Shown piece after piece: positions 1,565 through 58,271 of a stretch of DNA of 64,000 bases. Position numbers and translations under genes: made by a program. The notes beneath the pieces were generated by a model. The model was not told the DNA's origin. It made no database searches and worked only from the letters and a program-made list of their open reading frames with translations. The first letter of the stretch is position 1. Each line of letters begins with the position of its first letter. Origin of the DNA: Minisyncoccota bacterium (GTDB taxonomy: Bacteria > Patescibacteriota > Minisyncoccia > Phycocordibacterales > GWA1-40-21); contig JBAZRH010000001.1 in assembly GCA_041663045.1 (NCBI GenBank), positions 212,403-276,402 on the forward strand, in the 5' to 3' direction.

Positions 1565-2809
1565 TTAGTCTAATGGTAAAAACACTTCAACTTTAGTGCC
1601 CTTTCCTAAGATAGAAGATATTTTTATACTACCTCCATGCATTTCCACTATCTTCTTTGTGGCATAAAGACCGACTCCACTTTGGTTTGGATCAAGTCTT
1701 AAAGCATTCTTGCCACGGAAGAATTTTTGGAAGACATATTCTTGATCTGCCGAATCTATGCCGATGCCGTTGTCTTCCACTGTCAACTTTGCATATTGTC
1801 CTTCTTTTTTAATAGTAACTGTGACCTTACTTTTTGGAGCGTATCTGAACGCATTATCGAATATATTTGCTAAAGCAAGATCCAATACTTTCTTGTCACC
1901 ATAAACAGCCACCCCTTCTTTTATGTTTAATATTAAGCTAATTGCACTGCCTTGTATTAGATAAGCGAGATTTGAGATTATCTTTTCCACGATAGAATTT
2001 AAAGTGATCTTTTCTTTATTCAAGATTATTTTCTTATCGCCCAGATCATATTCGGCGGTTTTTATCATCTCTTCAATTATATTTATAGCTTGAACAACCC
2101 TTTCTCTTCCCTCTGTCAAAATTTTGATATCTGCGCAGTCTTTGTTTTGTATGGCGGTGTCTAATGCCCACCTGGCACCTGCAAGCGGTGATTTGAGCTG
2201 ATGCGATGTTGCTGTGAGAAAGATTTGTTTAACATTATCAAGCTCGCTCAATTCTACAAACTGTCTTTTCAATCTCTCTTTTTCAAAGCGTTGCATCATA
2301 ACTTCTTTGACTATTTTGTATAAATAAAAGACCATCAAAGAATAAACGGCAATATGCATTAAATATTTGATAACATAAACCGGATCTAGTCTGTTTTTAT
2401 CAAATAAAATCGTAGATACCATGACCAGAATCGTAAATAAACCAGTATTTATTGAAAGTCTCTCATTTAAATATGTTGCGGAAATTATCGGTATGAACAC
2501 CATTGCAAACATAAAGGTACTATCGAGACCTCCCGTGAGATAAATAAAAAGCCCATAGAATACAGCAAAAACATAGCCTATATGCATCCACAAGGATTGT
2601 TTTCTAAATACTTCAGCCAGTATGAAAATGATTGTTTGATAAATGAGCATTGCGATCGTGGCCACAAGGTAAAGTTTAATATTTGATATCCAAGGGAAAT
2701 ATTCCGGATATAAAAATGGAGCCACTATAAAAAGTATAAAATAGAAAATCGGAATTACTTTTAATAAAAAGAGTATACTTAATACCCTATTTGTTTTTTT
2801 CTCTATCAT
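1565..2809 (-). CDS. Membrane sensor histidine kinase
   Basis: 414 aa. About 6 hydrophobic helices at the N-terminus. H-box TSHQLKSPL and a HATPase_c tail (N-box NIFDNAFRYAP, G-boxes DNGIGI and GVGLYATKKIVEMHGG). Confidence 0.8.
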   Translation of the reverse strand: MIEKKTNRVLSILFLLKVIPIFYFILFIVAPFLYPEYFPWISNIKLYLVATIAMLIYQTIIFILAEVFRKQSLWMHIGYVFAVFYGLFIYLTGGLDSTFMFAMVFIPIISATYLNERLSINTGLFTILVMVSTILFDKNRLDPVYVIKYLMHIAVYSLMVFYLYKIVKEVMMQRFEKERLKRQFVELSELDNVKQIFLTATSHQLKSPLAGARWALDTAIQNKDCADIKILTEGRERVVQAINIIEEMIKTAEYDLGDKKIILNKEKITLNSIVEKIISNLAYLIQGSAISLILNIKEGVAVYGDKKVLDLALANIFDNAFRYAPKSKVTVTIKKEGQYAKLTVEDNGIGIDSADQEYVFQKFFRGKNALRLDPNQSGVGLYATKKIVEMHGGSIKISSILGKGTKVEVFLPLD

Positions 2810-5380: not shown

Positions 5381-6917
<1,537 letters not shown>

Positions 6918-34218: not shown

Positions 34219-34449
34219 AACTATTCGGATTCCGATCTATGCTCTTGTTGGTTGAGGAACAGGGAATCTCTCCTTCGCCTCTCAGTTCGCCGTCGCTCAT
34301 TTCGGGCTGGGCACCAGCTCACGACTTCGCCTGCTGGCTCAGTATCGTTCCGCTGTTCTCGTCCCTGACGCAAGAGAAGTAGTTCTCTTGCTTCCCCCAG
34401 CAAAGCATTAATCTGAGGAAAGCTCCGCTTACTATTTAAATCTGCTTTG

Positions 34450-34520
34450 CTGGGGGACAGGGACTCGAACCCCGATACTCAGGACCAAAACCTGATGTCC
34501 TACCATTAGACGATCCCCCA
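34450..34520 (-). tRNA. tRNA-Gln (anticodon UUG)
   Basis: The minus strand reads TGGGGGATCGTCTAATGGTAGGACATCAGGTTTTGGTCCTGAGTATCGGGGTTCGAGTCCCTGTCCCCCAG. 7-bp acceptor stem, anticodon loop tTTTGGt, T-loop GTTCGAGTC. No encoded CCA. Confidence 0.85.
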
Positions 34521-42076: not shown

Positions 42077-42148
42077 TCCGGAGTAGCTCAGCGGTAGAGC
42101 AGTTGCCTGTTAAGCAATTGGTCGCAGGTTCGATCCCTGCCTCCGGAG
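42077..42148 (+). tRNA. tRNA-Asn (anticodon GUU)
   Basis: TCCGGAGTAGCTCAGCGGTAGAGCAGTTGCCTGTTAAGCAATTGGTCGCAGGTTCGATCCCTGCCTCCGGAG. 7-bp acceptor stem, anticodon loop cTGTTaa, T-loop GTTCGATCC. No encoded CCA. Confidence 0.9.
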
Positions 42149-42221
42149 CAAATTAAAAACGCCACCCCTGTGTGGTGTTTTTCAATTTGCGACGGAGAGA
42201 AAGCTCTGGGAGAGCTTTCGT

Positions 42222-53191: not shown

Positions 53192-53389
53192 ATGACAGGA
53201 ACAATCAAAGCTCTTATAGAGAAAGGATTTGGATTCATTGCTCGCGAAGGCGAAACAAAGGATCTTTTCTTTCATTCTAAAGAACTTGTCGGTGTTACAT
53301 TTGCTGATCTAAGAATCGGTGACACCGTCACTTTTGAAGTTGTTGAGACCGAAAAGGGTCCTTCAGCTACAAAAGTATCAAGAGCATAA
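53192..53389 (+). CDS. Cold-shock protein (CspA family)
   Basis: 65 aa. GTIKALIEKGFGFIAREG...DLFFH RNP motifs. Confidence 0.9.
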   Translation: MTGTIKALIEKGFGFIAREGETKDLFFHSKELVGVTFADLRIGDTVTFEVVETEKGPSATKVSRA

Positions 53390-53408
53390 TAGCTTAAAAA
53401 CACCCTCG

Positions 53409-53447
53409 TCTGCCGTTTGGCAGACGAGGGTGTTTTTTGATATAATC
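53409..53447 (+). terminator. Rho-independent terminator
   Basis: acaccctcgtctgcc-gtt-tggcagacgagggtgt followed by TTTTT. Confidence 0.85.
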
Positions 53448-53452
53448 TTGTT

Positions 53453-53764
53453 ATGTTAGAAGAAGGACAAAACACAAGAAGGGATATACCGAAGATGCTT
53501 GAAAGACTTGATGTAAAGATCAGGAACGGTTTTCAGATTAGATTGATGAAAATGATGTTGGAAAATGAAAATCCAAATGAAACAGAACAATATGAATGGG
53601 CAGAAAGATATCACAAAGATGTAAGCGATATAATAGATGATACAAGTAATACTCAAATACGGTACTTGATTAGCCAAGGGGAACAATTTCCTGAAAGATA
53701 CGCCGAGGCCGCAAGGTTGGTAATAGCAATATTGAACCATCAAGAGATTCCTATTGCTGCTTGA
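53453..53764 (+). CDS. Hypothetical protein
   Basis: 103 aa, acidic, no recognisable domain. Confidence 0.4.
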   Translation: MLEEGQNTRRDIPKMLERLDVKIRNGFQIRLMKMMLENENPNETEQYEWAERYHKDVSDIIDDTSNTQIRYLISQGEQFPERYAEAARLVIAILNHQEIPIAA

Positions 53765-53789
53765 CAAAAAATATAGCTTGGTGTAAGAT
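53761..53789 (+). promoter_or_regulatory. Sigma-70-like promoter
   Basis: TTGACA (53761-53766), a 17-nt spacer, then TAAGAT (53784-53789). Confidence 0.55.
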
Positions 53790-53795
53790 AGTAGG

Positions 53796-53955
53796 CGGAG
53801 CTGTGGTGGTCACTTTGGTAGTGTCCGGGTGCAACCTATGGGGTTCCTCACCCCGACCTCCTTGGCGCTCGGACTCGAACAGCAGTGATCCCACGGCTCC
53901 CTATTCTCTCTTTTCGAGATGGTAGAACCCACAACAGGTGTTTGTGGGTTTTTTG
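53796..53955 (+). ncRNA. Candidate structured small RNA or cis-regulatory leader (family unassigned)
   Basis: GC-rich 160-nt segment between a consensus promoter and the intrinsic terminator aacccacaacaggtgtttgtgggtt + TTTTT. The 5' GGAGCUGUGGUGGUCACU pairs with the 3' AGUGAUCCCACGGCUCC to close a domain of about 105 nt containing a GGGG-UUCCUCA-CCCC hairpin. No ORF. Confidence 0.45.
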
Positions 53956-54004
53956 TTGGCTAAAAGATGATATAATATAAATGTTATAAATTTAATATTA
54001 ATAT

Positions 54005-54292
54005 ATGGGATTTTTTAGTGATGACACAAAACCAAGAGTAACTAAGGAAGAATTTCAAAAAGTGAGAGGCTCTCTTTCTGCAAATGGTTTTACTTTAAAA
54101 GAAATTAATAGGGTGGAAGAGATATTTCGTGGAGACATGTATGAGGAAAGAGAAAAAGATAAGGGGGTGGATGAATTTGAACTACAAAATACAATAGCTT
54201 GGATGAGAGCAAATATGAGTAAACATAATTTGTCCGAACCGAAAATAGCAATATTGGAAAGAGAAATGATAGAGAGAATAAATCATTTATAA
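54005..54292 (+). CDS. Hypothetical protein
   Basis: 95 aa, helical and charged. Begins 50 nt after the candidate RNA's terminator. Confidence 0.4.
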   Translation: MGFFSDDTKPRVTKEEFQKVRGSLSANGFTLKEINRVEEIFRGDMYEEREKDKGVDEFELQNTIAWMRANMSKHNLSEPKIAILEREMIERINHL

Positions 54293-54384: not shown

Positions 54385-54684
54385 ATGATAAATTCAAAGA
54401 ATAGTGACAAAAGTTTCTGGCAATTATTTCTGGAATGGCAACATTTAAGAAAAGATAAACATTTTGATACTGCCAGAAAGAGACAGTTGGAAGAAAAACT
54501 TGAAGGGTATCTGATTGATACGTTAAATTTGAGACAAGAGCTCTTCATGGCATGGAGACTTACTCCGGTGAATGAACCACTCAAAGAAGCCTTCGCAAGG
54601 AGACTAGAACACACACAGATTCTTGAAGAAGAGCGTCAGCATACGTTTGATTGTGAAAGTGGTGAATTCTACGACCTTCCATAG
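54385..54684 (+). CDS. Hypothetical protein
   Basis: AAAGGAGG sits 5 nt upstream of the ATG. 99 aa with no recognisable domain. Confidence 0.45.
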   Translation: MINSKNSDKSFWQLFLEWQHLRKDKHFDTARKRQLEEKLEGYLIDTLNLRQELFMAWRLTPVNEPLKEAFARRLEHTQILEEERQHTFDCESGEFYDLP

Positions 54685-54685
54685 T

Positions 54686-54718
54686 AGCCCCGAAATATTT
54701 TCGGGGCTACCTTTTTAC
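54686..54718. terminator. Bidirectional terminator between convergent genes
   Basis: agccccgaaa-tatt-ttcggggct with a T-run after it and an A-run on the opposite strand. Confidence 0.75.
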
Positions 54719-55887
54719 CCCAGAATTTTTCTAGTATCTTCAGCTATCTGCTTCATTTCATTTGTCTTTACTACTTCAACCCTTATCCTTGAATCATCAG
54801 TAGATATGGCGGTATTTAATCTATCTGTATCTTCATTCTTCTTTTCATCAAGTTTAATCCCAAAAGCATCAAGACCATTGCAAATCCTTTGCCTCATCTT
54901 AAACGATCTCTCACCCACTGTACCGGAAAAGACAAGTAAATCCAAACCACCAAGCGCGGCTACATATGCCCCGATTTGTTTTTGTATTCTATAGGCATAA
55001 ATATCCAAAGCATTTTTTACATCAGTATTTTCATTCTCCACCTTAAATAATTCACGAACATCATCACTCTTACCAGACAAACCAAGAAGACCGCATTTTT
55101 TATTTAAATATTGTCTTAACTTTGTCCCTTTCAAACCCAGAACTTCCGAAAGATAAGCCACTGCGCCAGAATCGATATCTCCAACCCTTGTCGCCATCAC
55201 CATACCTTCAAGTGGAGTAAAACCCATGCTTGTATCTATACTTTTTCCATTTTTTAGTGCAGTAATACTCACACCACCACCCACATGACAAACGATCATT
55301 TTTTCAGCCATCTTTCCCGTCTCTTTCAGTTTATTTACAATAGAACCAAGGGATATACCATGATATCCATATCTATAAATTTCATATTCTTTAGAGTCAG
55401 AAAGTGGAATTGCATAAAATCTAGATTTATCTGGCATCCCTGTGTGAAAAGCACTATCGGAAACTCCAACAATCGGTACACTCTTACCAAAAAATTTTAA
55501 TAGCTTTTTGATTTCAGCCGAGATAGCCTCAATATGAAGAGGTGCTTTCTCCCCTGCGTTTTTTATATTTTTCAAAAACTCTTTATCTATAATATGATTC
55601 TGTTCAAAATAAACTCCTGGAGCTACGACTCTAATACCTACTCCAAAAATATCTTCTTTTGATAAAATAAATGTCTTTTTAATTAGAATAGAGACTAAAT
55701 AATCTAGTGATTTTTCAAATTCCCTGCTTGTAATTTTGGACTTTTCACTACCACTGTCACAAACAAATGTGGAAATATACTCACCATTTTCTGTCTCAAT
55801 ATGTAAAAAGGCGGCCTCTTTATCTCCCACAAATAAAGAATATTTTTTTGACGCACTACCTGTATTTACAATTAAATATTTATGCAT
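54715..55887 (-). CDS. ackA: Acetate kinase
   Basis: 390 aa. N-terminal LIVNTGSASKKYSLF and the acetokinase signature regions VVHLGGGSS-like (CHVGGGVSI). Confidence 0.9.
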   Translation of the reverse strand: MHKYLIVNTGSASKKYSLFVGDKEAAFLHIETENGEYISTFVCDSGSEKSKITSREFEKSLDYLVSILIKKTFILSKEDIFGVGIRVVAPGVYFEQNHIIDKEFLKNIKNAGEKAPLHIEAISAEIKKLLKFFGKSVPIVGVSDSAFHTGMPDKSRFYAIPLSDSKEYEIYRYGYHGISLGSIVNKLKETGKMAEKMIVCHVGGGVSITALKNGKSIDTSMGFTPLEGMVMATRVGDIDSGAVAYLSEVLGLKGTKLRQYLNKKCGLLGLSGKSDDVRELFKVENENTDVKNALDIYAYRIQKQIGAYVAALGGLDLLVFSGTVGERSFKMRQRICNGLDAFGIKLDEKKNEDTDRLNTAISTDDSRIRVEVVKTNEMKQIAEDTRKILG

Positions 55888-55910
55888 TCGGTTTAATTTA
55901 AATTAATAAT

Positions 55911-58271
55911 TTATCTCCAAGTCCACTTATCTATCTCTTCTGGATCAGCACCTTTTTCTTTTATATAATCTAGAGTATTCTTCGTCTTTTGCCTGTAAAG
56001 TTCTATGATTCTGGCTGCTTTGCTCTCCTCCACTACTCCTTTCGCAGAAAGCTTTTCAAGTGCTTCCATAAGCAAAGTATATCTGTCGGTACCATTTCTC
56101 ACATGTAAATCAAACGGTGTTGTCGTAGAACCACTTTCTAAATATCCGTGTACAGAAAATCTATCTTTTGCATTTTGATAATCAAAAAGTGATTGTTTAA
56201 GAGTTTCTGGATATCCATGAAAATTAAATATTACCGGCTTATCTTTTGTAAAATATTCATCAAATTTCTCATCACTCATTTTGGTGATAGAACTCCCGAT
56301 TGTATTTGGCGAAAGCTCCACAATATTTATAAATCGTGCTTTCGCCTCCGGTGCCTCTTTTTTAAGTAAACTAATGGCAGCTAGGGTTTCTTTCACAAGA
56401 TACTGTCCACAGGCAGAGAAAATAATGTCTGGATTTTCCGAGCTTACAAAATCCCAAATAGAAAGTCCGTCAGCGATTTCCTTTTGCGCTTGTGCTTGTG
56501 TGAGCCAAATATTTTCTATTGTCTTTTCAGCAACAATTATATTTATCTCATTTCTTGACTTAAGAGACTTCTTCATTATCTCTACCGCTTCATTGCCATC
56601 TGCCGGAAAATATACATTTATAAAGTCATTGTGTTTTTGTAAAAGACCGTCTATAAAACCAGGATTTTGATGTGAAAAACCATTGTGTTCTTGCCTCCAG
56701 CCACTTGAGGTCAAAAGGTATGTAAGCGAGGGTACATCGCCCCTCCAGGCCGTCTTTCTTGCGATTTTAAGGAACTTACTGTACTGGTCCGCCATACTTG
56801 TCACTATTGGCACAAAAGCCTCGTAGGAAGCAAAAATAGCGAATCTGCCACTAAGCGTATATCCCTGTGATAGGCCCTGCATGGAGTGTTCTGAAAGCAT
56901 CTCTATTACACGACCATCTCTGGCAAAATCTGAATCCCACTCAAAGAGTGGCCCCATGAAAGTCCTCTTCGTAACAGTAAAGATATCTTGTAGACGATTC
57001 GAGTATGTCTCGTCTGGTGAAAAAAGTCTGATATTTCTTTTTTCTTTGTTTAGCTTCATTACCTCGGCTAAATATGCACCGATTTTTCTCATTGAACTTA
57101 TTTGTTTTTCTCCTGGATATAGAATCTTTTCTTCAAAACTCGCTGTCTCTGGCAAAATAAGTCCACGTGAAATATCACCTTTCTTTATTCCCATTGTTAC
57201 TGGATTATCCCCCATTCTCAGATTTTCTTTAGGAATATTTTCAATAATTTCTTTTGTAAAACCGGTTTCTGGGTTGAAAAGTTCTTCAAATTTGTAAGAC
57301 TTGAGCCATTTTGCTATAGCTTTCAATTCAACTTTATTTGTTTTTGCATCTTTACCAACAACCTGATGTGAAAGACTATTCCCCTCTATTTTCTGTCCTT
57401 CAAGTTCTTTGATACCAGTCCAACCCTTTGGCGTCTTCACAATAATCATCGGAAATCTTGCAAAATATGTATCGGTTTTTTCTGTACCTTCTCTCGCTTC
57501 TCTTTGTATTTTTATAATAGACGCGTACGCTTTATCTAAAGCCTTTACCATTTTTCTGTAAACTATTTCACCCTTGCCTTCCACAATAATAGGGTCGTAA
57601 CCATAACCTTTGAAAAGCGCTCGCAAATCTTTATTATTCATTCTGCCAAATATCGTCGGGCCGGAAATTTTATATCCATTTAAATGTAAAATCGGAAGTA
57701 CCGCGCCGTTGTGTGCAGGATCGATAAATTTATTTAAGTGCCATGCTGTAGCAAGCGGACCAGTTTCCGCTTCGCCATCTCCGATAAGACAAGTTGCTAT
57801 AAGACTTGGATTATCAAGCACTGCTCCATAGGCGGTTGAAAGTGAATATCCAAGCTCTCCACCTTCAAGTATTACGCCGGGAGTTATCGGACTTGAATGA
57901 CTTGGAAACCCATAAGGCCAACTAAATTGTTTTGAAAAATAAGAAATGCCTTTCTCGTCTTTTGTCGCATCAGCATAATATTTACCAAGTGTTCCCTCAA
58001 GAAAAAGATTGGCTTGCAAAGCCGGAAATCCGTGACCTGGGCCTAAAAGAAACATCATATTTGTGCCGGTCTTATTTATCAGATTGTTGAGACATGCGTA
58101 AACAAAATTTATCCCTGGACATGTGCCCCAGTGCCCTAAAAGTCGAGGTTTGATATCATCAAAAGTCAGTTTATTATCAAGTAAGAAATTACTCTGTAAA
58201 TATATCTGAGTAACCGTGAGGTAGTTGGTAGTTCTTACGTACTTTTTAATTCTCTCTACTTCCTGATTCAT
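55911..58271 (-). CDS. xfp: Xylulose-5-phosphate/fructose-6-phosphate phosphoketolase
   Basis: 786 aa. LLGHWGTCPGINFVYACLN matches the phosphoketolase signature. TPP-binding GDGEAETG. Co-oriented with ackA. Confidence 0.9.
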   Translation of the reverse strand: MNQEVERIKKYVRTTNYLTVTQIYLQSNFLLDNKLTFDDIKPRLLGHWGTCPGINFVYACLNNLINKTGTNMMFLLGPGHGFPALQANLFLEGTLGKYYADATKDEKGISYFSKQFSWPYGFPSHSSPITPGVILEGGELGYSLSTAYGAVLDNPSLIATCLIGDGEAETGPLATAWHLNKFIDPAHNGAVLPILHLNGYKISGPTIFGRMNNKDLRALFKGYGYDPIIVEGKGEIVYRKMVKALDKAYASIIKIQREAREGTEKTDTYFARFPMIIVKTPKGWTGIKELEGQKIEGNSLSHQVVGKDAKTNKVELKAIAKWLKSYKFEELFNPETGFTKEIIENIPKENLRMGDNPVTMGIKKGDISRGLILPETASFEEKILYPGEKQISSMRKIGAYLAEVMKLNKEKRNIRLFSPDETYSNRLQDIFTVTKRTFMGPLFEWDSDFARDGRVIEMLSEHSMQGLSQGYTLSGRFAIFASYEAFVPIVTSMADQYSKFLKIARKTAWRGDVPSLTYLLTSSGWRQEHNGFSHQNPGFIDGLLQKHNDFINVYFPADGNEAVEIMKKSLKSRNEINIIVAEKTIENIWLTQAQAQKEIADGLSIWDFVSSENPDIIFSACGQYLVKETLAAISLLKKEAPEAKARFINIVELSPNTIGSSITKMSDEKFDEYFTKDKPVIFNFHGYPETLKQSLFDYQNAKDRFSVHGYLESGSTTTPFDLHVRNGTDRYTLLMEALEKLSAKGVVEESKAARIIELYRQKTKNTLDYIKEKGADPEEIDKWTWR

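Follow-up and report, generated by a model that had tools for sequence, protein, structure and literature searches.

What does a short GC-rich segment with a promoter of its own and a terminator of its own produce, when no protein can be assigned to it? This question is raised by positions 53761-53955 of a 64,000-nucleotide (nt) stretch of DNA from a Minisyncoccota bacterium (contig JBAZRH010000001.1), which was analyzed at its full length and is called the window here. An earlier note on this segment had offered two readings, a stand-alone small RNA (sRNA) and a riboswitch-like leader of the downstream gene for a protein of 95 amino acids (aa; 54005-54292). The segment from 53797 to about 53955 on the + strand is very probably an independently transcribed, non-coding sRNA gene of about 160 nt. 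It belongs to an uncatalogued family of hairpin RNAs, whose other named hosts are Kiritimatiellia and Lentisphaerota.

Architecture of the RNA gene

The gene consists of four parts.

53761..53789, + strand: sigma-70-type promoter, with TTGACA at 53761-53766, a 17-nt spacer and TAAGAT at 53784-53789
53797..53900, + strand: RNA body, an unbranched hairpin of 104 nt in the minimum-free-energy fold
53901..53925, + strand: CU-rich tail forming small hairpin 2, CUAUUCUCUC-UUUUC-GAGAUGGUAG (-6.0 kcal/mol)
53926..53955, + strand: intrinsic terminator, a 10-bp stem with one bulge, the loop AGGU and then U6

The promoter matches the consensus at 10 of 12 positions. The string TTGACA-N17-TAAGAT occurs a single time in the 64-kb window, against 0.02 occurrences expected by chance. 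Its -35 hexamer overlaps the stop codon of a 103-aa open reading frame (ORF) upstream, and the transcription start is predicted at about 53796-53797. The GC content is 0.62 at 53800-53899, compared with 0.378 across the whole window. The promoter, the GC-rich segment and the strong terminator that the earlier note had seen are all present at these positions. The 5' end pairs with a downstream segment, as had been proposed, and this outer stem (GGAGCUGUGGUGGUCACU / AGUGAUCCCACGGCUCC) closes the 104-nt hairpin in the minimum-free-energy fold. The + strand folds at -78.4 kcal/mol (z = -5.2), and none of 200 shuffles was equally stable; the fold of the - strand is weaker (-65.7 kcal/mol, z = -4.0). 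A closed domain of about 105 nt with internal hairpins had been suggested. Its extent stands, but not its branching, since the 104-nt domain is a single hairpin made of one apical stem-loop and internal loops. The terminator, AACCCACAAC-AGGU-GUUUGUGGGUU followed by U6 (53926-53954), has a folding energy of -10.9 kcal/mol. It was not listed by a simple consensus scanner, probably because of the one-base bulge. The description of the segment as free of ORFs is true in substance: ORFs of 31-54 aa overlap the RNA mechanically, and none of them is conserved in homologues.

The conserved core and its loops

The middle of the hairpin carries the core that defines the family.

53823..53874, + strand: family core, from the covariance-model match, alignments A1 and A2, and covariation
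within 53823..53874, + strand: inner stem of the core, GUCCGGGUGC / GCGCUCGGAC
53833-53839, + strand: 5' internal loop AACCUAU
between the internal loops and the apical loop, + strand: apical stem GGGG/CCCC
53844-53850, + strand: apical loop of 7 nt, UUCCUCA
53855-53864, + strand: 3' internal loop GACCUCCUUG
53856..53863, + strand: anti-Shine-Dalgarno (anti-SD) octamer ACCUCCUU, in the 3' internal loop, by direct reading of the sequence

The window copy matches covariance model R1 over 53811-53896 with 54.4 bits (E = 3e-13). The mean predicted probability of being unpaired is 0.82 for the 5' loop, 0.74 for the apical loop and 0.84 for the 3' loop. The unpaired C/U-rich stretches CCUAU, UUCCUCA and GACCUCCUUG are conserved in alignments A1 and A2. 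The octamer ACCUCCUU is identical to the anti-SD with which 16S rRNA ends in bacteria.

The family is described by the formula GCR-(5-9 nt, CCYAU-like)-GGGG-UUCCUCA-CCCC-GACCUCCUUG-GYGC, set on a lower stem that varies freely and remains paired. A pyrimidine-rich apical module of about 31 bases (GGGGUUCCUCACCCCGACCUCCUUGGCG) is invariant in the family, with 18 of those bases fixed by the scan pattern. ACCUCCUU is invariant in 55 of 55 family sequences, the search pattern itself having fixed seven of its eight bases, and it is also invariant in two copies that are independent of the pattern. The first, L141, was reached by a homologue search with the Kiritimatiellia TPR protein beside the L049 copy, which gave the 39%-identical homologue P0122, and it has an identical core at the syntenic position (89.5 bits with R1). 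The other, L055b, is a second copy in L055 that departs from the scan pattern by UUGACG in place of UUGGCG, with compensation in the stem; the rest of the core is the same and sits on another lower stem. Judged by these sequences, the conservation of the core is more than ascertainment. The two sibling copies of L055, with the same core and different lower stems, lie about 4.3 kb apart at 1614-1697 (-) and 5927-6011 (+). A second, degenerate copy was also seen at L020:9643-9725 (-), which scores 20.9 bits, keeps CUCACCCCGACCUCCCUGGCG and is without the apical stem.

A family of covarying hairpins

Metagenomes were scanned with the pattern TTCCTCANNNNGACCTCCTTGG, which contains 18 core bases, and at least 120 stretches matched. 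Among the 123 matches listed in the loci analyzed, 64 (58 unique) are members of the hairpin RNA family, with the consensus GGAAGGGCGGnnGUGCGUUUnCCUAUGGGGUUCCUCACCCCGACCUCCUUGGCGCnCGnCGCCCUUC-UUUUUU. The remaining 59 listed matches have no hairpin and are apparently protein-coding. TTCCTCAGSCCGACCTCCTTGGCCC recurs without a hairpin in high-GC contigs, in long mutually similar stretches (for example, L028:1508-1529 and L044:1639-1660), and looks like a conserved protein-coding motif rather than RNA. Two patterns gave no matches in viral contigs, and no matches were found in plasmids and phages.

RNAalifold gave 16 consensus pairs, of which 12 have compensatory changes. In the model-based alignment of 55 family sequences (A2), 96.9% of cells are paired, against 86.0% in shuffles, and none of 500 shuffles reached the observed value. 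Controls in which the alignment was slid gave 37-64% paired. Double changes occur at 12 of the 16 pairs, with 115 doubly changed cells against 22.9 in shuffles. Covariation among homologues had been named beforehand as a check on the structure, and the lower stem of the homologous hairpins does covary at these 12 pairs. The + strand of A2 is rich in G-U and U-G pairs, which on the opposite strand would be A-C mismatches; the + strand is therefore the RNA strand. The promoters upstream and the U-runs downstream of the hairpins agree with this orientation. In at least 23 of the 55 members, a -35/-10 pair that fits the consensus at 8 or more of 12 positions ends 3-8 nt before the hairpin, in the form TTGCAA, TTGAAA or TTGACA, then 16-17 nt, then TAnnnT. 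At least five U within 9 nt after the hairpin are present in 32 of the 55. The median hairpin of the family is 68 nt, and the typical transcript in Kiritimatiellia and Lentisphaerota is a hairpin of about this length that doubles as its own terminator. The downstream gene is mostly convergent, and its functions are diverse.

The hosts could be named from exact matches of neighbouring proteins, which belong to Kiritimatiellia for L088, L093 and L057 and to Lentisphaerae/Lentisphaerota for L047. The window and one relative (L009) belong to Paceibacterota, which are part of the Candidate Phyla Radiation (CPR). For the window, the acetate kinase encoded nearby is 100% identical to a protein named from a Candidatus Paceibacterota MAG. 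Ten Kiritimatiellia-type loci (L040, L045, L049, L051, L076, L088, L103, L107, L119 and L141) have a common gene arrangement around the RNA. A gene for a small HMA-domain lipoprotein lies divergently about 120-140 nt upstream, and a gene for a protein of about 720-780 aa, with an MGH1-like glycoside-hydrolase (GH) region, a transmembrane segment and TPR, lies convergently downstream. In the syntenic loci, the large TPR/GH-like proteins average 32% identity (25-81%) and the HMA-like lipoproteins 42%. About 17 family copies carry an imperfect palindrome, TGAAC-N2-3-TTGMAA, that overlaps the -35 hexamer (for example, L042:860-905, L057:1275-1315 and L119:565-610). This palindrome may be a regulator-binding site, and it is absent from the window promoter.

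The window copy and its relatives in Paceibacterota

The window copy is an extended variant of the hairpin family, and it has the lowest R1 score of the clear members. It carries GGGG-UUCCUCA-CCCC-GACCUCCUUG with GYG/CRC closing and a covarying lower stem. The lower stem runs about 20 pairs further, and where typical members have their U-tail, the window copy has a CU-rich hairpin plus a terminator of its own. In place of a self-terminating hairpin of about 70 nt, the window has a hairpin of 104 nt, a hairpin of 25 nt and the separate terminator, and L009 is similar. L009 is the nearest relative found (AckA 79% identical), with the same promoter and a long hairpin at the syntenic position, after a homologue of the 103-aa ORF. 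The alignment between the two hairpins is confined to the central 46 nt (89%), with GGGUUCCUCACCCCGACCUCCUUGGCGCUCG identical within them, and the 31-nt core is the same in L009, the window and the Kiritimatiellia copies. The outer stem of L009 is equally long and of unrelated sequence (z = -8.6). The long outer stem extension was found in these two Paceibacterota copies.

Four further Paceibacterota loci (AckA 62-68% identical) have an RNA gene at the corresponding position.

L011:10055-10268, - strand: positional orthologue
L133:9975-10182, - strand: positional orthologue
L134:8475-8682, - strand: positional orthologue
L139:8085-8290, - strand: positional orthologue

These RNAs share the promoter TTGACA-17-TAAGAT/TATCAT, a long closing stem, a pyrimidine-rich tail and a terminator. 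The promoter layout TTGACA-17-TAAGMT / TATCAT is found in L009, L011, L133 and L134, and in all positional orthologues from Paceibacterota the closing stem leads into the pyrimidine-rich tail (CUAUUCUCU / UGUUCUUU). The RNAs of L011, L133, L134 and L139 escape detection by model R1. Their interiors have diverged: UCACCCCCAGCCACCUCGG is kept in L139, L133 and L134 have AAUGACCUCCUG in the apical loop plus the CCUGUCCCUGUACAA motif, and L011 keeps no more than the CCUGUCCCUGUACAA motif. The locus is a conserved sRNA gene that still has the canonical module in the window and L009, whereas the module has eroded in the related loci. In our reading, this pattern makes vertical descent within the clade more probable than recent transfer. 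A scan of genome contigs with AckA gave only distant Saccharibacteria and phytoplasma loci, and model R1 had no match in them. For the 103-aa protein upstream, a homologue search recovered only the protein itself.

Downstream of the L009 RNA, the 95-aa gene is absent and a different promoter-bounded, GC-rich RNA is present instead. At L009:6530-6770 (-), a second TTGACA-17-TAAGAT promoter precedes a long hairpin of high GC content (about 215 nt), after which comes a strong terminator (-87.6 kcal/mol, z = -5.0). This segment has no Rfam match even at E <= 5, and it is possibly another uncatalogued RNA of the size of 6S RNA.

Search among known RNA families

At the gathering score, Rfam 15 gave only tRNAs in the window and in 24 loci. 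The tRNA genes of the window (Rfam 15 and ARAGORN) lie at 34449-34520 and 42077-42149 alone, and ARAGORN found no tRNA or tmRNA at the RNA site. At E <= 10, no ZTP, 6S, signal recognition particle (SRP) or riboswitch model matched window positions 53700-54010. None of 20 family loci had an Rfam match at the gathering score, and a typical copy had none at E <= 10. The best sub-threshold match was the Betaproteobacteria toxic sRNA (24.7 bits against a gathering score of 50), which covers the tail and terminator only; we read it as a terminator-like resemblance. The core sequence was not found in the searchable literature, and keyword searches gave nothing relevant. The suggestion of a stand-alone sRNA from an uncharacterized family is upheld by the RNA's own promoter and terminator, by the covarying homologues and by the lack of a family in Rfam 15, the database check that had been recommended.

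Several known RNAs were considered and rejected. The loose resemblance to the ZTP (pfl) riboswitch that had been pointed out does not hold, because there is no match at the gathering score or even at E <= 10 and no pseudoknotted pfl core. In addition, the downstream 95-aa protein is unassigned and its gene has its own -10 element, and the terminator shares no strand with the closing stem P1. The label "6S-like" is likewise dropped: no covariance-model match was obtained, and the RNA is a 104-nt hairpin without a central bubble, not a molecule of about 180 nt. Small SRP RNA (4.5S) gave no match, and the window RNA has the apical loop UUCCUCA and pyrimidine-rich internal loops, with no GNRA tetraloop and without the symmetric loop of domain IV. 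An antitoxin of a type III toxin-antitoxin system was rejected because no tandem repeats were found in 53600-54100 and the neighbouring proteins had no notable defence or toxin-antitoxin match.

Mode of action and rival explanations

The best explanation of the whole, held tentatively and quite possibly right, is that this uncatalogued hairpin-family sRNA gene encodes an RNA that acts in trans by pairing. Pairing with ribosome-binding sites in particular is a plausible mode of action, to which slightly less weight is given. According to this model, a rigid stem would display three unpaired pyrimidine-rich stretches, namely CCUAU, the UUCCUCA loop and GACCUCCUUG. These would pair in trans with purine-rich ribosome-binding sites of the AAGGAGGU type in mRNAs, so that the RNA would compete with the 30S subunit and lower the translation of genes strongly led by a Shine-Dalgarno (SD) sequence. 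As in sRNAs with anti-SD motifs, a dedicated promoter and an intrinsic terminator bound the gene, which is non-coding and has conserved unpaired C/U motifs that are complementary to GGAGG. Among the window ORFs with 50 aa or more, only about 15-20 have AGGAG, GGAGG or GAGGT at 3-13 nt before the start codon. The same search gave 39 motif matches at 224 sites, several of them overlapping, and by a crude count a 4-mer SD core precedes 8 of 62 long ORFs. The use of SD sequences thus seems limited to a subset of genes in the window. Since only a minority of window genes have AGGAG or GGAGG upstream, a restricted regulon is possible, and it might include the gene at 54385, which has AAAGGAGGU upstream.

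Several points weigh against this explanation. The complementarity to SD sequences is generic and indistinguishable from that of 16S rRNA itself, and no particular target came to light. In the translation-initiation regions of the conserved neighbouring HMA-lipoprotein genes, neither an SD nor conserved complementarity was seen. sRNAs that act by base pairing are as a rule confined to one lineage and keep a short seed only. In this family, a CPR bacterium and Kiritimatiellia share about 31 identical nt, the GGGG/CCCC stem included, which fits recognition by a conserved protein or the ribosome better. The diverged interiors of the other Paceibacterota orthologues indicate that the module is dispensable at this locus. 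The family-wide invariance is partly ascertainment, as 18 core positions were fixed by the pattern, and it is overstated except in two or three pattern-independent copies. Finally, the expression of the RNA and the ends and abundance of the transcript are predictions from the DNA.

A rival account, unlikely but serious, is that the RNA is a decoy that binds a protein or ribosome factor, or a mimic of the 16S 3' end (helix 45 plus anti-SD). It might titrate a KH-domain protein (Era or KhpA/B), bS21, bS1 or an anti-SD-cleaving toxin, or it might soak up SD-like RNAs as a sponge instead of regulating individual mRNAs. The whole module, including the stem, is invariant across CPR and the Planctomycetes-Verrucomicrobia-Chlamydiae (PVC) superphylum, to which Kiritimatiellia and Lentisphaerota belong, although the neighbouring proteins average about 32% identity. 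A hairpin followed by GA-CCUCCUU also resembles the 16S 3' end, whose anti-SD octamer is the same; some genomes have sibling copies, and the promoters are strong. However, the hairpin lies 2 nt from CCUCC, against about 7 nt in 16S rRNA, the GAUCA element that Era recognizes is missing, and the loop differs from the GGAA loop of helix 45. No candidate protein partner is co-located, and the window neighbours are without family assignment. A more specific version, in which the module would be a cross-phylum mimic of the 16S 3' end that titrates SD-led mRNAs or an anti-SD-binding factor in trans, is more doubtful still. If it were true, the RNA would be an abundant, general regulator of translation at the level of the ribosome rather than a gene-specific sRNA, and it would be shared by CPR (Paceibacterota) and Kiritimatiellia through ancient descent or lateral transfer.

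Much less probable than either is a cis-acting leader, that is, a riboswitch or protein-dependent attenuator whose expression platform, controlling the 95-aa gene, would be the terminator at 53926-53955. The promoter, structured RNA, terminator and gene do lie on one strand, and the homologues of the 95-aa gene in L011, L133, L134 and L139 lie downstream of RNAs that share the promoter and tail of the window RNA. However, the closing stem and the terminator share no sequence, so no alternative antiterminator pairing is available, and the P1 stem is far more stable than those of riboswitches. The 95-aa gene also has a promoter element of its own beyond the terminator.

53968..53976, + strand: extended -10 element TGATATAAT of the 95-aa gene (54005-54292), outside the RNA

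TGnTATAAT lies between the RNA terminator and the ATG in the window and in four of five homologues elsewhere. The element before the homologue is analogous in L133, L134 and L139 and is TAGTATAAT in L011. L009 keeps the RNA without the 95-aa gene, and the interiors of the RNAs that precede this gene in other genomes are not conserved. Within the family, the downstream genes are usually convergent and varied in function, and no riboswitch model matches. The missing antiterminator, the separate -10 element, the L009 arrangement and the convergent downstream genes lead to rejection of the riboswitch or attenuator reading that had been offered alongside the stand-alone one; the RNA gene is independent of the gene downstream.

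It is hardly more plausible, and indeed a shade less so than a leader, that there is no RNA gene at all and that the hairpin is a repeated palindromic DNA element or the ornate terminator of a neighbour. The hairpin with its U-tail and the two copies in L055 would suit this idea. Conserved loops on covarying stems are the opposite of what is seen in repeats of the repetitive extragenic palindrome (REP) or miniature inverted-repeat transposable element (MITE) kind, the window has a single copy, and a dedicated promoter lies immediately upstream. The gene upstream points away from the hairpin in Kiritimatiellia, which excludes the hairpin as the terminator of that gene. A small protein-coding gene is scarcely credible: an AUG at 53838 opens a 16-codon frame (AUG GGG UUC CUC) on the + strand of the window and the reverse complement of the core reads AAGGAGGU-CGGG-GUG, a perfect SD sequence with a GUG, but the AUG is missing in L009 (CUCUGGG) and in CACGGG variants, a stop follows after five codons in CCCU variants, the core has no synonymous-type variation, the flanks vary as a compensated RNA stem with strand-specific G-U pairs, and transcription is predicted to start 3-8 nt before the hairpin in most members.

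Neighbouring genes

The 95-aa gene has no SD sequence, and its homologues are kept beside AckA in several Paceibacterota. At L010:6093-6602, the homologue is apparently fused in frame with that of the next gene (99 aa; 54385-54684 in the window). For the neighbouring proteins of 95, 99 and 103 aa, Pfam, NCBIfam and PADLOC yielded nothing informative. Upstream, a strong terminator hairpin (ACACCCUCGUCUGCC...GGCAGACGAGGGUGUUUUUU) at 53400-53446 follows a cold-shock-domain gene (53192-53389) and overlaps the promoter of the 103-aa ORF, TTGGCA-18-TATAAT (11 of 12 matches, with TG). On the - strand, 54715-58271 encodes a pair of phosphoketolase (786 aa) and acetate kinase (390 aa), which is kept in all related Paceibacterota loci fetched.

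Significance and comparison with known systems

Stand-alone bacterial sRNAs of the anti-SD-motif kind are already known. The family, with its architecture, its identity across phyla and the extended form in CPR, is absent from Rfam 15 and from the searchable literature. To our knowledge, very few regulatory RNAs have been described in the Candidate Phyla Radiation or Kiritimatiellia, and almost no bacterial sRNA families are conserved across phyla. A module of about 31 nt that is identical across CPR and Kiritimatiellia, beside neighbours of about 32% identity, implies that its partner is conserved to the same degree as the translation machinery. The anti-SD octamer within the module leads to a directly testable hypothesis, namely that the RNA would control SD-dependent initiation in trans. 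In cultured Kiritimatiellia, this hypothesis would be accessible to experiment. Covariance model R1 can annotate a gene that is missed by current pipelines (Rfam 15).

The alpha-proteobacterial sRNAs NfeR1 / alpha-r14 ("cuckoo") and AbcR carry, in their loops and linkers, several unpaired anti-SD-type motifs (CCUCCUCCC / CUCCCA) that pair with ribosome-binding sites. NfeR1 and AbcR resemble the window RNA in being stand-alone genes with their own promoter and terminator, in having pyrimidine loops and in having sibling copies in one genome. They differ in that they have several hairpins and are confined to one class, whereas the window family is a single hairpin with a cross-phylum module of about 31 nt. 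No sequence or covariance-model relationship links them to this family. RsaE/RoxS of Firmicutes and Yfr1 of cyanobacteria are short sRNAs with ultraconserved unpaired C/U-rich motifs between stems, and RsaE/RoxS targets SD regions. These RNAs have other motifs and folds than the window RNA, which has no Rfam match, and they are phylum-restricted. ZTP, 6S and SRP RNAs are, like the window RNA, GC-rich structured RNAs in an AT-rich genome, and in 4.5S and 6S RNA, too, the 5' and 3' ends pair into a long closing helix. At its 3' end, 16S rRNA likewise has a hairpin followed by ...CCUCCUU, with the identical octamer ACCUCCUU. This end differs in its spacing of about 7 nt, its GAUCA and its GGAA loop, where the window RNA has 2 nt, no GAUCA and UUCCUCA; and unlike the 16S 3' end, the window family is a separate gene of about 70-160 nt.

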